64,000 nt of DNA from an uncultured delta proteobacterium (GCA_963817725.1 CAWFPD010000010.1:413104-477103); one strand, 5' to 3'. Positions 6,677-11,058 are shown, counted from the first letter of the stretch. A program made the numbers and translations. The notes: generated by a model from the letters alone, not told the origin.

Positions 6677-6795
6677 ATTCCGGCAGCGTCCTACTCTCCC
6701 ACAGGGCTGCCCCTGCAGTACCATCGGCTCTGACAGGCTTAACTTCCGAGTTCGGGATGGGATCGGGTGTGACCCTGCCGACATTGCCACCGAAT
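6677..6795 (-). rRNA. rrf: 5S ribosomal RNA
   Basis: The reverse complement aligns by eye to the bacterial 5S (…CCCGAACTCGGAAGTTAAGC…GGGAGAGTAGGACGCTGCCGGAAT). The ends are +/- a few nt. Confidence 0.9.
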
Positions 6796-6925
6796 CCGTA
6801 GAAAGTTTCTCTTCACCGCTTTGTGAGCGGATCAGAAGCAAGTTCGAGCGTCCGTTTTGATGGAACGTCTCGAGCTCTTCCTTCCAACCCTGACCTCGAG
6901 CCACGTACGAAACGTGTCTTAGAAG

Positions 6926-9900
6926 AAGGTCAAGCCTCACGGCCGATTAGTACTGGTCAGCTTCACGTGTTGCCACGCTTCCACACCCAGCCTATCAAAC
7001 TCGTAGTCTACAAGTGGCCTTTAGGGACCGAAGTCCAGGGATACCTCATCTTGGGGCCCGCTTCCCGCTTAGATGCTTTCAGCGGTTATCGGTTCCGTAT
7101 ATAGCTACCCGGCTATGCTTCTGGCGAAACAACCGGAACACTAGGGATACGTTCAACCAGGTCCTCTCGTACTATGGTCAACTCCCCTCAAGTATCCTGC
7201 GCCCACGACAGATAGGGACCGAACTGTCTCACGACGTTCTGAACCCAGCTCGCGTACCGCTTTAATTGGCGAACAGCCAAACCCTTGGGACCTGCTCCAG
7301 CCCCAGGATGCGATGAGCCGACATCGAGGTGCCAAACCGCGCCGCCGATATGAACTCTCAGGCGCGATCAGCCTGTTATCCCCGGAGTACCTTTTATCCG
7401 TTGAGCGATAACCCTTCCATATGGAGTTACCGGATCACTAAGGCCTGCTTTCGCATCTGCTCGACCTGTCGGTCTCACAGTTAAGCTCCCTTATGCCTTT
7501 GCACTCTACGGCTGGTTTCCAATCAGCCTGAGGGAACCTTCGCGCACCTCCGTTACGTTTTAGGAGGTGACCGCCCCAGTCAAACTGCCCACCAGACAAT
7601 GTCCCCGCACCGGATCACGGTGCTGGGTTAGAAGTCCAGAACAGCCAGGGTGGTATTTCAAGGTTGGCTCCATCGAGACCAGAATCCCGACTTCAAAGCC
7701 TCCCACCTATCCTACGCAGACTGTCCCGAACTTCACTGCCAAGTTGCAGTAAAGGTTCACGGGGTCTTTCCGTCTAGTCGCGGGTAGAGCGTATCTTCAC
7801 GCCCAATACAATTTCGCTGAGTCACTGGCCGAGACAGTGGGGATGTCGTTACGCCATTCGTGCAGGTCGGAACTTACCCGACAAGGAATTTCGCTACCTT
7901 AGGACCGTTATAGTTACGGCCGCCGTTTACTGGGGCTTCGATTCGCTGCTTCGCCGAAGCTAACAACTCCTCTTAACCTTCCAGCACCGGGCAGGCGTCA
8001 GACCCTATACGTCCTCTTACGAGTTCGCAGAGTCCTGTGTTTTTGGTAAACAGTCGCAACCCCCTGGTCTCTGCAACCCACATCCGCTCGGAGAGCAAGT
8101 CTCGTCACGGACACGGGCACACCTTCTCCCGAAGTTACGGTGTCAATTTGCCGAGTTCCTTAGCCAGTGTTCTCTCACGCGCCTTGGGATTCTCACCCCG
8201 CCCACCTGAGTCGGTTTGCGGTACGGTCACTGAAGACCCTCACTACGCAGCTTTTCTTGGAAGCATGGAATCACCGAGTTACGGAGCCGGAGCTCCACCT
8301 CATCACGTCTCGGGGTTGTTTCCGCGTTTGTGGCTATCGCCTCCTACGGAAACCCCCTACCTGCTTGAACCGGCACTACCATTCGCCGGATCGGCCTATC
8401 CTTCTCCGTCCCTGCTTAGATCAATGGATTCCTCAGTGGTGCAGGAATATTAACCTGCTTCCCATCGCCTACCCCTTTCGGGCTCGACTTAGGGGCCGAC
8501 TAACCCACAGGCGAATTATTCTTCCCTGGGAAACCTTGGGCTTACGGCGACAGGGTTTCTCACCCTGTTTATCGCTACTCATGCCTGCATAAGCTCTTCT
8601 CAAGTCCGAGAGTGCTCCTTACGGTACACCTTGTATCTACTTGAGAATGCTCCGCTACCGCTCTCAAAAAGAGAACCCGAAGCTTCGGTACCAGACTTAG
8701 CCCCGTTATATTTTCGGCGCGGGCTCGCTCGACCAGTGAGCTGTTACGCTTTCTTTAAAGGATGGCTGCTTCTAAGCCAACCTCCTGGCTGTCTGAGCGT
8801 TCCCACATCCTTTCACACTTAGTCTGGATTGGGGACCTTAGCTGTCGATCTGGGCTCTTTCCCTCTCGGCTACGGACCTTATCACCCGCAGCCTGACTGC
8901 CTAGTAGTTGTCACCAGCATTCGGAGTTTGGTTGGGTTTGGTAATCTGGTAGGACCCCTAGCCCATCCAGTGCTCTACCTCCGGTGCAATTCACTAGACG
9001 CTATACCTCAATATATTTCGCGGAGAACCAGCTATCTCCGAGCTTGATTAGCCTTTCACTCCTATCCTCAGGTCATCCCCTGAATTTTCAACTTCAGTGG
9101 GTTCGGTCCTCCACGCAGTTTTACCCACGCTTCAACCTGCCCAAGGATAGATCGCTCGGTTTCGGGTCTACGCCCTGCTACTAGATCGCCCTATTTGGAC
9201 TCGGTTTCCCTACGGCTCCACCTCTCGGCTTAACCTCGCAACAAAGCGTAACTCGCAGGCCCATTATGCAAAAGGTACGCCGTCGCACATTCCCCGAAGG
9301 GCATAGTGCTTCGACTGCTTGTAGACACACGGTTTCAGGTACTATTTCACTCCCCTCGCCGGGGTGCTTTTCACCTTTCCCTCACGGTACTCGTTCACTA
9401 TCGGTCGTCGAGTAGTACTTAGCCTTGGAAGATGGTCCTCCCAGATTCCCACAGGGTTCCACGTGCCCCGTGGTACTCGGGTGCCAGTGCAGAGACCAAA
9501 CGTTTTCGACTACAGGGCTGTCACCTTGTATCGCCGACCTTTCCAGATCGTTCGCCTAACGTTTGGTTTGGTAACTCTGTGAGAGCATTAGGGCGCTCTC
9601 CCACTGGTCCCACGACCCCATATCAACAACGCCCCTAAGCTTACATTGATATGGTTTAGGCTGGTCCCCGTTCGCTCGCCGCTACTAAGGGAGTCTCGGT
9701 TGATGTCTATTCCTCCAGGTACTTAGATGTTTCAGTTCCCTGGGTTGGCCGCCTAATGCCTATGTATTCAGCACTAGACTCCTGGGTATCACCCCAGTCG
9801 GTTTCCCGATTCGGAAATCCCCGGATCAAAGTGTGTTAGCCACTCCCCGAGGCTTTTCGCAGCTGCCCACGTCCTTCATCGCCTCTCGACGCCAAGGCAT

Positions 9901-9927
9901 CCACCGTGTGCCCTTTCTAGCTTGACC
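6926..9927 (-). rRNA. rrl: 23S ribosomal RNA (about 3.0 kb)
   Basis: The 5' end is GGTCAAGCTAGAAAGGGCACACGGTGGATGCCTTGGC (reverse complement of 9891-9927). The 3' end is …GTGAGGCTTGACCTT. Conserved blocks are visible on the minus strand, e.g. GACGGAAAGACCCCGTGAACCTTTACTGC, seen on the plus strand as its reverse complement around 7750-7780. The flanks are complementary, forming a processing stem. Confidence 0.95.
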
Positions 9928-9977
9928 TTGCTCCTAAGACGCATTTCGTCCTCAGGCTTCGACAAATCGCCGATCCG

Positions 9978-10047
9978 CCGCTTACCTCCTCGGTCGCTCC
10001 GCTGCGAGGTACTGTAGTACCTCTCACTTCGCTTCCTGCGGGGGCGC
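9978..10047. repeat. Spacer hairpin module, copy A (between tRNA-Ala and 23S)
   Basis: Plus strand GCTTACCTCCTCGGTCGCTCCGCTGCGAGGTACTGTAGTACCTCTCACTTCGCTTCCTGCGGGGGCGC. It contains the perfect hairpin GAGGTAC-TGTA-GTACCTC. Confidence 0.7.
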
Positions 10048-10232
10048 TGGCGCCTCGACGATTTCTCTTCGCCTAAGGGTGGTGGCGTTACCAAACGCGA
10101 ATATTTGGGATACCACCGTGTGGTCTGTCACGACGGAAGTTGTGACGGACCACGCTCGCAACTCGAGGCCAGGGTTCGAAAGAAGAGCCTGGCCACAGTC
10201 GCGGCTAGAAAGAGAATTTTCTACTTTCTTCA

Positions 10233-10246
10233 GTTGTCAAAGAGCT
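10233..10246 (-). promoter_or_regulatory. boxA-like antitermination element (spacer, upstream of 23S)
   Basis: The minus strand reads AGCTCTTTGACAAC, resembling the E. coli rrn boxA GCTCTTTAACAA. Confidence 0.55.
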
Positions 10247-10409
10247 GCGAGAATCGAGCTTTGAATCTTGATTGCTCGGGTCGATGGCGCGCGTTTGTCG
10301 CGTCGCCGACCGGAACGATCAAGAGTGGTTCGTCACGAGGTTTTTGGCAAGTCGCCTCATCACTGTCGAGTGACTCATCTCGGACCCGGGGGTGGCGGGC
10401 GTGACTCGG

Positions 10410-10482
10410 TGGAGCTGAGGGGGATCGAACCCCTGACCTCCGGCTTGCAAAGCCGGCGCTCTCCCAGCTGAGCTACAGCCCC
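10410..10482 (-). tRNA. tRNA-Ala (anticodon UGC)
   Basis: The reverse complement GGGGCTGTAGCTCAGCTGGGAGAGCGCCGGCTTTGCAAGCCGGAGGTCAGGGGTTCGATCCCCCTCAGCTCCA folds as a cloverleaf. The anticodon loop is CTTTGCAAG and the G3:U70 alanine identity pair is present. CCA is not encoded. Confidence 0.95.
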
Positions 10483-10511
10483 TTGGCTTTCGTCCCAGCT
10501 CCGGCACCTGG

Positions 10512-10582
10512 CCGGCTTACTCCCATCGTCGCTTCGCTGCGAGGTACTTGAGTACCTCTCACTTCGCTCCTCCGGGAGACGC
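10512..10582. repeat. Spacer hairpin module, copy B (between tRNA-Ile and tRNA-Ala)
   Basis: Plus strand CCGGCTTACTCCCATCGTCGCTTCGCTGCGAGGTACTTGAGTACCTCTCACTTCGCTCCTCCGGGAGACGC. It has the same orientation as copy A, with hairpin GAGGTAC-TTGA-GTACCTC. Confidence 0.7.
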
Positions 10583-10701
10583 TCGCCCATGCACCGAATC
10601 TGGAACGAAATCCATTCCTTGGAATGGAGGCATGGGAAGCCTGGGCATCTTGTCTCGGACACATGGTCCGGGCGCAGGGTTCTTGGGGTCAGGTCCGAGC
10701 G

Positions 10702-10770
10702 GCGCCCCCGCAGACCCGGAGTGAGAGCTACATCGGTAGCTCGCAGCGGAGGGTCGAGGAGGTAAGCCGG
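10702..10770. repeat. Spacer hairpin module, copy C (inverted relative to A and B)
   Basis: Its reverse complement is CCGGCTTACCTCCTCGACCCTCCGCTGCGAGCTACCGATGTAGCTCTCACTCCGGGTCTGCGGGGGCGC. This is colinear with copy A, and the hairpin arms are changed in a compensatory way (GAGCTAC…GTAGCTC). Confidence 0.7.
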
Positions 10771-10794
10771 AGCTGGCGCAAAAGGACAAGCCGG

Positions 10795-10868
10795 TGGGGC
10801 ACGCTAGACTCGAACTAGCGACCTCACCCTTATCAGGGGTGCGCTCTAACCACCTGAGCTAGTGCCCC
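10795..10868 (-). tRNA. tRNA-Ile (anticodon GAU)
   Basis: The reverse complement GGGGCACTAGCTCAGGTGGTTAGAGCGCACCCCTGATAAGGGTGAGGTCGCTAGTTCGAGTCTAGCGTGCCCCA folds as a cloverleaf. The anticodon loop is CTGATAA. Confidence 0.95.
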
Positions 10869-10881
10869 GTGTTTCTCGCAA

Positions 10882-10894
10882 GCTGTCAAAGACG
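10882..10894 (-). promoter_or_regulatory. boxA-like antitermination element (leader, 13 nt upstream of tRNA-Ile)
   Basis: The minus strand reads CGTCTTTGACAGC. It is the second copy of the TCTTTGACA core seen in the 23S-proximal spacer. Confidence 0.5.
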
Positions 10895-11005
10895 CATCGG
10901 AAGTGGATTCGGTGAACCTTGTCCGGAGCTCGTTCGGGCGTAAGCCCTGAAAACTACTCCGCTTTGTTGGTTCCCGTCCCCAACTTCCTCCGCAAAGGGA
11001 CGCCT

Positions 11006-11058
11006 TCTTTAGCGGCCTTCACCTAACCGGTCAAGCACTTTCCAAAAAAAGGAATAGC
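11006..11058 (-). promoter_or_regulatory. Candidate rrn promoter with A/T-rich UP element
   Basis: The minus strand reads CTATTCCTTTTTTTGGAAAGTGC-TTGACC-(17 nt)-TAAAGA. It lies about 135 nt upstream of tRNA-Ile and is the only A/T-rich tract in the 240-bp gap. Confidence 0.4.

Follow-up and report, generated by a model that had tools for sequence, protein, structure and literature searches.

A probable unlinked 23S-5S rRNA transcription unit, canonical except for its missing 16S gene, in an uncultured myxobacterium

The 64,000-nucleotide (nt) stretch from an uncultured delta proteobacterium studied here (GCA_963817725.1, CAWFPD010000010.1:413104-477103; called the window when taken at its full 64 kb) carries on its minus strand a ribosomal RNA (rRNA) operon consisting of two transfer RNA (tRNA) genes, tRNA-Ile and tRNA-Ala, followed by the 23S and 5S genes, with no 16S gene. 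The operon is very probably no artefact but an "unlinked" rRNA transcription unit that is stably inherited in an uncultured myxobacterium (Myxococcota, order Polyangiales). Because the same unit and its synteny with a neighboring thiolase gene are found again in related species and in metagenome contigs, the 16S-less unit is a clade-level trait inherited at a syntenic site. A scan with the thiolase across one genome per GTDB species places the host among the uncultured Polyangiales, and the names of the metagenome-assembled genomes (MAGs) concerned suggest soil or another environmental habitat. Save for the missing 16S gene, the unit is mechanistically ordinary and belongs to a well-known class.

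Gene order and absence of a 16S gene

Coordinates are positions in the window; for this minus-strand unit the low-coordinate side is the 5S end and the high-coordinate side the promoter end. In the direction of transcription the features are:

11107..12291, minus: thiolase gene (394 aa), the upstream neighbor outside the unit and synteny anchor (translation; Pfam Thiolase_N and Thiolase_C)
11107-11109, minus: stop codon of the thiolase gene (direct sequence reading)
11035..11058, minus: A/T-rich tract upstream of the -35 hexamer, with a T7 run at 11044-11050 and a conserved GAAAG at 11038-11042 (sequence reading and alignments)
11006..11034, minus: candidate sigma-70-type promoter, -35 TTGACC at 11029-11034, spacer of 17 nt, -10 TAAAGA at 11006-11011 (sequence reading and alignments)
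10869..10999, minus: leader of about 130 nt (alignments), with a putative start near 10999
10882..10894, minus: boxA-like element of the leader, CGTCTTTGACAGC (sequence reading)
10793..10868, minus: tRNA-Ile, anticodon GAT (ARAGORN; Rfam, 67.5 bits)
10483..10792, minus: Ile-Ala spacer of 310 nt with two inverted copies of a hairpin element, cores at 10535-10563(-) and 10720-10748(+) (motif search, folding)
10408..10482, minus: tRNA-Ala, anticodon TGC (ARAGORN; Rfam, 71.3 bits)
10234..10245, minus: spacer boxA GCTCTTTGACAA, upstream of the 23S gene (sequence reading, spacer alignment)
9962..10066, minus: hairpin element of about 100 nt in the Ala-23S spacer, core at 10000-10028 (spacer alignment, folding)
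9928..9960, minus: 5' half of the predicted 23S processing stem (duplex prediction)
6926..9927, minus: 23S rRNA gene, full length (Rfam RF02541, 2898.6 bits, model positions 1-2925)
6895..6925, minus: 3' half of the predicted 23S processing stem, within the 23S-5S spacer (duplex prediction)
6678..6794, minus: 5S rRNA gene (Rfam RF00001, 102.6 bits)
6642..6673, minus: intrinsic terminator right after the 5S gene (14-bp stem with 9 G-C pairs, GAAA loop, tail TTCTTGATGG)

All four RNA genes (23S, 5S, and the two tRNAs) are intact and high-scoring, as judged by Rfam gathering thresholds and ARAGORN, and tRNA-Ile, tRNA-Ala, 23S, 5S, and intrinsic terminator follow each other as they do in a canonical operon. 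A preliminary description of this DNA had read the minus strand as promoter, boxA, tRNA-Ile, tRNA-Ala, a second boxA, 23S, 5S, and terminator, and Rfam, ARAGORN, and direct reading of the sequence bear out this order at the coordinates listed, including the terminator hairpin at 6642-6673. The same description had noted that the roughly 240 bp between the thiolase gene and tRNA-Ile contain no 16S gene and that the 16S end with its anti-Shine-Dalgarno sequence is lacking. The interval from the thiolase stop codon to tRNA-Ile measures 238 bp, and both statements hold: neither Rfam at E<=10 nor the primer motifs described below detect a 16S sequence in it, and no anti-Shine-Dalgarno-like string occurs in 10869-11106. 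In a linked operon the 16S gene would be situated between the leader and the spacer tRNAs; here, boxA is separated from tRNA-Ile by only 13 nt.

Rfam models for small-subunit rRNA (SSU) have no match above gathering scores in the whole 64 kb, and a permissive search of 9800-12500 (E<=10) yields no SSU fragment. Six universal 16S primer motifs, allowing up to two mismatches, find no match in the window or in 82 loci, save for two chance matches of the 16-nt "1100" motif, in L014 and L026. Flanking regions were reached by walking outward from the window via exact-protein look-ups. The adjoining ~10 kb on the low side are all protein-coding and contain no 16S gene according to the universal primer motifs, and the ~7.7 kb beyond the high end are packed with called protein genes, leaving no room for one. 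Since the 16S-free interval thus comprises the window together with ~10 kb on its low side and 7.7 kb on its high side, the 16S gene must be at a distance exceeding ~16 kb on the 5S side and ~60 kb on the promoter side. Brewer et al. (bioRxiv 10.1101/705046) consider rRNA genes unlinked when 16S and 23S are more than 1500 bp apart; no 16S gene is present within 1500 bp of the 23S gene, and the earlier designation of the arrangement as an "unlinked" rrn fits this operational definition.

That the 16S gene was "cleanly" removed from a canonical operon is plausible from the sequence, because all other parts are canonical and the leader boxA abuts tRNA-Ile.

Conservation of the unit and its copy number

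Exact-protein look-up of the thiolase identifies the same species in two further assemblies. A 642-kb ENA contig (L001), 99.9% identical to the window, carries the thiolase gene, leader, tRNA-Ile, tRNA-Ala, 23S, and 5S. In the NCBI MAG GCA_049288685.1 the region is divided between two contigs. One of them (L002) contains the thiolase gene, the 238-bp leader region, and tRNA-Ile and ends 23 nt beyond, and the other (L096), 99.98% identical to the window, starts in the purK, dabB, dabA, and PAPS-reductase genes, crosses the 5S gene and the complete 23S gene, and reaches up to the spacer boxA. The 238-bp junction between thiolase and tRNA-Ile is identical in all three assemblies of the species.

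In the three closest species (L003, L004, and L006), tRNA-Ile, tRNA-Ala, and 23S, and in L004 also 5S, are encoded downstream of the thiolase gene as well. Thiolase and 23S identities to the window are 92 and 96.5% for L003, 90 and 97.1% for L004, and 90 and 89.8% for L006, the last 23S value covering only the first ~680 nt. Rfam finds no SSU in L001, L003, L004, or L006. Between the thiolase gene and the leader, 1.9 to 4.7 kb are interposed in L003, L004, and L006; in L004, for which open reading frames (ORFs) were listed, this gap is filled by long ORFs on the same strand. An invariant 24-nt word of the leader was used to search metagenome contigs of the Joint Genome Institute (JGI) and retrieves 12 contigs. 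Wherever these are long enough, tRNA-Ile, tRNA-Ala, and 23S follow downstream (12 of 12, with the reservation that applies to L089 below), and in none of the 12 is a 16S gene found next to the leader word. Either the leader of the 16S gene differs from that of the 23S unit, or 16S contigs with the same leader were not assembled. Thiolase synteny is retained in L003, L004, and L006 and in the JGI contigs L087, L088, and L091. The comparison with related genomes that the preliminary description had recommended therefore comes out in favor of the unlinked arrangement, as three other GTDB species and 12 metagenome contigs carry the 16S-less unit and the unit is conserved within the lineage.

In the JGI contig L089 (592-2990), leader, tRNA-Ile, and tRNA-Ala are followed immediately by an ORF whose translation resembles class-III aminotransferases, in place of the 23S gene. 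A chimeric joining of short reads at the tRNA is the likelier explanation of this contig, a 23S-less variant the less likely one.

Because the short-read contig L096 crosses the entire 3-kb 23S gene from unique DNA, it suggests that the 23S-5S unit is single-copy in the GCA_049288685.1 genome. This bears on the alternative of a mixed genome, in which the 16S-less unit would be an extra copy beside one or more ordinary linked 16S-23S-5S operons. Such genomes exist, 0.62% of complete genomes being mixed and 3.65% exclusively unlinked (Brewer et al., bioRxiv 10.1101/705046). However, a contig spanning unique genes, the 5S gene, and all 3 kb of the 23S gene is unlikely to be assembled if a second, near-identical 23S gene exists elsewhere, the unit is intact and conserved between species at a syntenic site, and the 24-nt leader word is never upstream of a 16S gene in the contigs searched. 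We consider a mixed genome improbable, and there is indirect support for the view that none of the genome's 23S-5S units is linked. Spurious ORFs inside the 23S gene were also looked up for other 23S contexts; only one 2.9-kb contig with no other called gene was found with one of them, and the other ORF is not on record.

Promoter, spacer elements, and neighboring genes

Upstream regions were aligned first for four species and then for 13 distinct sequences. In the 13 distinct leaders, conservation begins abruptly at GAAA(G/A)-nn-CTTGACC, while DNA further upstream is unrelated; over the related species, the DNA immediately upstream differs, with 1.1 to 4.7 kb between thiolase and leader. The -35 and -10 hexamers are invariant across the aligned orthologous sequences, and their spacer measures 17 nt in every one of them, its first 12 nt being variable among 11 to 13 orthologs and its end consisting of a conserved GCCGC right before the -10 hexamer. 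Likewise, the distance from the -35 hexamer to the invariant GCCGC-TAAAGA-AGGCG block is constant. Because conservation starts at the same point whatever gene lies upstream, the footprint strongly suggests a dedicated sigma-70-type promoter as its best reading, and a spacer that is fixed in length yet partly variable in sequence between invariant hexamers argues for a promoter rather than an RNA element. The -35 hexamer TTGACC matches the consensus in five of six positions. The promoter call is based on position and cross-species conservation, and transcription would start near 10999. The preliminary description had proposed a promoter with an UP element at about 11006-11058. TTGACC-N17-TAAAGA is indeed present there, now with a phylogenetic footprint across species. 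The UP element fares less well: the short A-rich GAAA(G/A) next to the -35 hexamer is conserved, but the T-run is frequent and variable among leaders and also resembles the terminator tail of the upstream gene. The A/T-rich tract at 11035..11058, which overlaps the weak hairpin and T-tail after the thiolase gene, could act as an UP-like element.

Several points weigh against an unlinked unit with its own promoter. The 16S gene itself was not located, and "unlinked" here stands for absence within ~82 kb, not for a measured distance; an additional linked rrn copy at another genomic site is conceivable, if improbable. The -10 hexamer TAAAGA agrees with the consensus in only three of six positions, and because it lacks the final T, a generic consensus promoter scan made no call at the candidate promoter. 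The hairpin after the thiolase gene is weak, leaving room for read-through from upstream. Finally, the leader folds as a single sequence with -51.2 kcal/mol (z -2.9), and its sequences are too conserved to display compensatory changes, so that covariation does not support a leader structure.

Some of these points would fit a unit that has no promoter of its own and is transcribed by read-through from the thiolase operon, the conserved block then being a processing or regulatory part of the leader. The thiolase gene is on the same strand and only 238 bp upstream, no terminator is called for the weak intervening hairpin, and the -10 match is poor. Against this, the upstream DNA differs between species whereas the start of conservation stays constant just upstream of TTGACC, and a fixed-length, partly variable spacer between invariant hexamers is the signature of a promoter and not of an RNA element. 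Transcription by read-through is therefore quite improbable as the sole source of the unit's RNA, and a dedicated promoter is the preferred interpretation.

The first ~70 nt of the leader are almost invariant between species in the alignments. Its end reads (T/G)CTTTGACA(G/A)nTTGCGAGA, followed by tRNA-Ile, with (T/G)CTTTGACA being invariant in 12 leaders. Sequences near the boxA consensus GCTCTTTAACAA occur both in the leader (CGTCTTTGACAGC) and before the 23S gene (GCTCTTTGACAA). Both boxA elements of the preliminary description are present: the one in the leader is read directly at 10882-10894, 13 nt before tRNA-Ile, and the one upstream of the 23S gene, at 10234-10245, is conserved in six orthologous spacers as TCTTTGA(C/A)AACTGAA. 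A boxA 11-mer alone is not rarer in the window than expected by chance (3 matches vs 2.3 expected), and the identity of these elements is judged from their position, their conservation, and their likeness to the boxA of Escherichia coli rrn operons; the leader element CGTCTTTGACAGC resembles the E. coli sequence, TGCTCTTTAACAA.

Beyond helix 1, the 5' and 3' flanks of the 23S gene are predicted to pair continuously over ~30 bp in both the window and L004, which makes this flanking helix a predicted processing stem of the canonical RNase III type. The terminator after the 5S gene is strong, with a G+C-rich 14-bp hairpin and a T-rich tail. From these features a conventional course of expression can be proposed. 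RNA polymerase would start at the dedicated sigma-70-type promoter ~130 nt upstream of tRNA-Ile, and the leader boxA together with the second boxA before the 23S gene may, as their motifs suggest, recruit Nus-type antitermination factors. Gene order and terminator are consistent with a single precursor comprising tRNA-Ile, tRNA-Ala, 23S, and 5S that would end at the terminator hairpin. As in tRNA maturation generally, RNase P and 3' processing would free the tRNAs, and an RNase III-type cleavage at the predicted ~30-bp flanking stem would excise the 23S rRNA. A 16S gene residing elsewhere, beyond ~16 kb on the 5S side or ~60 kb on the promoter side, would need separate transcription.

The spacers of the unit contain a hairpin element of ~100 nt with the core AGTGAGAG[G/C]TAC-NNNN-GTA[C/G]CTCGCAGCG. 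Three copies are present in the window, at 10000-10028(-), 10535-10563(-), and 10720-10748(+), with none elsewhere in the 64 kb and none expected by chance. Across 101 loci (~1.5 Mb), the element is confined to rRNA spacers of the clade, in either orientation, and it is also found in the rRNA spacers of L003, L083, L087, and L090. The Ala-23S spacer contains it in L003, L083, and L087, whereas it is absent from that of L004 and L006. Its apical stem covaries (GGTAC/GTACC vs GCTAC/GTAGC), with z values for folding of -3.2 to -4.5. The element may represent a small hairpin, mobile or involved in processing, that is peculiar to rRNA spacers. The Ile-Ala spacer of the window holds ~235 nt that are missing from the 99.9%-identical strain L001 (window 10487-10769 vs L001 11523-11570); this extra DNA corresponds to two inverted copies of the element, and the spacer folds as one long hairpin (-144.5 kcal/mol, z -4.3). 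Spacer length is 11 nt in L004 and L006, 77 nt in L001, and 310-340 nt in the window and L003.

The contig of the NCBI MAG breaks at window position 10770, which is the exact point where window and L001 diverge. Because the break sits exactly at the edge of the ~235-nt insert, strain polymorphism and not a hidden 16S gene explains it. A second rrn copy was considered as the cause of this break just after tRNA-Ile and rejected, given the strain-polymorphic insertion of ~235 nt at precisely that point. An assembly artefact, a collapsed or mis-joined rrn repeat that dropped the 16S gene and fused tRNA-Ile to unrelated DNA, was the refutation envisaged in the preliminary description, and rRNA operons are classic sites of misassembly, the contigs of the short-read MAG indeed end within the spacers, at window positions 10770 and 10245, and L089 looks chimeric just past tRNA-Ala; but such an artefact is hardly credible in view of the identical 238-bp junction in three assemblies (reproduced in L002 and in the 642-kb contig L001), of a leader abutting tRNA-Ile in 15 further loci (three other species and 12 metagenome contigs) and conserved with its promoter footprint, and of contig breaks that coincide with a strain-polymorphic hairpin insertion and not with the position of a 16S gene.

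Just downstream of the rRNA unit, a DabB/DabA pair (a proton-antiporter-like subunit and a PF10070 protein; 1516-5687(+)) forms an inorganic-carbon uptake module. A convergent PAPS-reductase gene at 5691-6733(+) in the window (vs L095 15502-16506) specifies a protein of 296 aa, the same length as in the NCBI MAG. The gene call of the ENA contig is longer, at 334 aa, and reaches into the 5S gene, and two indels distinguish the ENA contig from the window across the aligned window positions 1-10486. A frameshift error of the ENA assembly in this gene is likely, because the aligned stretch with the two indels contains it. Regions ~11100-22300 and 55000-64000 encode many genes of lipid or steroid-type catabolism, assigned at the Pfam level only (gene tables L001 and L099). 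These neighbors include several P450s accompanied by ferredoxins, a KshA-like Rieske oxygenase, a thiolase, an enoyl-CoA hydratase, an acyl-CoA ligase, short-chain dehydrogenases (SDRs), an F420H2-dependent quinone reductase, and TetR regulators.

Comparison with known rRNA units and significance

A canonical rrn operon of the E. coli type consists of promoter, leader boxA, 16S, tRNA-Ile, tRNA-Ala, boxA, 23S, 5S, and terminator. Every one of these elements except 16S is present here, the promoter as a candidate, and in canonical order; the 16S gene and its flanking processing stem are absent, and the leader boxA is followed by tRNA-Ile after 13 nt. Thermus thermophilus possesses an independently promoted 23S-5S(-tRNA) operon and a separate 16S gene, with a tRNA-Gly probably encoded downstream. 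Both organisms are free-living and have a 23S-5S unit apart from 16S, but they belong to different phyla and the tRNA content seems to differ. The rRNA cluster of Borrelia burgdorferi, a host-dependent bacterium with a small genome, is arranged as 16S-tRNA-Ala ... tRNA-Ile-23S-5S-23S-5S. In both cases tRNA-Ile stays with the 23S-5S unit; in Borrelia, however, the spacer tRNAs are split between units and 23S-5S is tandemly duplicated, whereas here both tRNAs remain with 23S and the host belongs to the large-genome myxobacteria. Borrelia, Helicobacteraceae, Rickettsiales, Buchnera, and Wolbachia are further classic cases of unlinked rRNA genes. Rickettsiales, Wolbachia, Buchnera, and Helicobacter have in common with the present unit a 23S-5S unit separate from 16S, but in those groups the split goes with genome reduction and a host-associated life, and the spacer tRNAs have mostly disappeared or moved to other sites, while the present unit looks like a canonical operon minus 16S.

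In the survey by Brewer et al. (bioRxiv 10.1101/705046), unlinked representatives occur in 37 of 71 phyla, and among soil taxa the unlinked share reaches as much as 41%. Free-living soil bacteria that grow slowly often have the trait, which is conserved at the species level and associated with low rRNA copy numbers and slow growth (Brewer et al., bioRxiv 10.1101/705046). Unlinked groups surveyed there include Thermaceae/Deinococcaceae, Planctomycetes, Dehalococcoidaceae, Ca. Udaeobacter, and Acidobacteria subgroup 2. The text of that study makes no mention of Myxococcota or Polyangiales, and in the part of its table considered here, genomes of Anaeromyxobacter are given as "linked". Our literature searches found no report of unlinked rRNA genes in myxobacteria, Myxococcota, or Sorangium. 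With the unlinked genes of that survey the present case shares non-adjacent 16S and 23S genes and conservation as a trait of the lineage; here, the candidate promoter, the leader boxA, the two spacer tRNAs, and the predicted 23S processing stem have all been kept. Deinococcus-Thermus reportedly lack RNase III (reports cited by Brewer et al., bioRxiv 10.1101/705046), in contrast to the long predicted RNase III-type stem that flanks the 23S gene in the window.

Taken jointly, the observations permit a wider interpretation, which we offer tentatively and hold to be possible rather than probable. In an entire clade of Polyangiales, excision of 16S may have divided the sole rRNA operon for good, with the ancestral promoter, the leader boxA, the two spacer tRNAs, and the RNase III stem left in place. 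The spacers of the unit would also have been colonized by a previously undescribed hairpin element of ~100 nt, inserting in either orientation, polymorphic between near-identical strains, and restricted to rRNA spacers within ~1.5 Mb. If this is true, a free-living bacterium of a large-genome group would have uncoupled the synthesis of 16S and 23S rRNA and yet kept everything else canonical.

As the phenomenon of unlinked rRNA genes is well established, the gain is incremental, and the added value is the modest one that the case sits in the Myxococcota and retains a canonical leader and both spacer tRNAs. In practical terms, long-amplicon methods covering 16S, the internal transcribed spacer, and 23S would miss the Polyangiales clade that carries the 16S-less unit, and short-read bins of this clade may show no 16S gene joined to the remainder of the operon. 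Unlinked rRNA genes pose the question of how the output of 16S and 23S rRNA is balanced without co-transcription, and a conserved case in which everything but 16S is canonical would, once the 16S locus is known, offer a clear-cut natural setting in which to compare how the two units are regulated.

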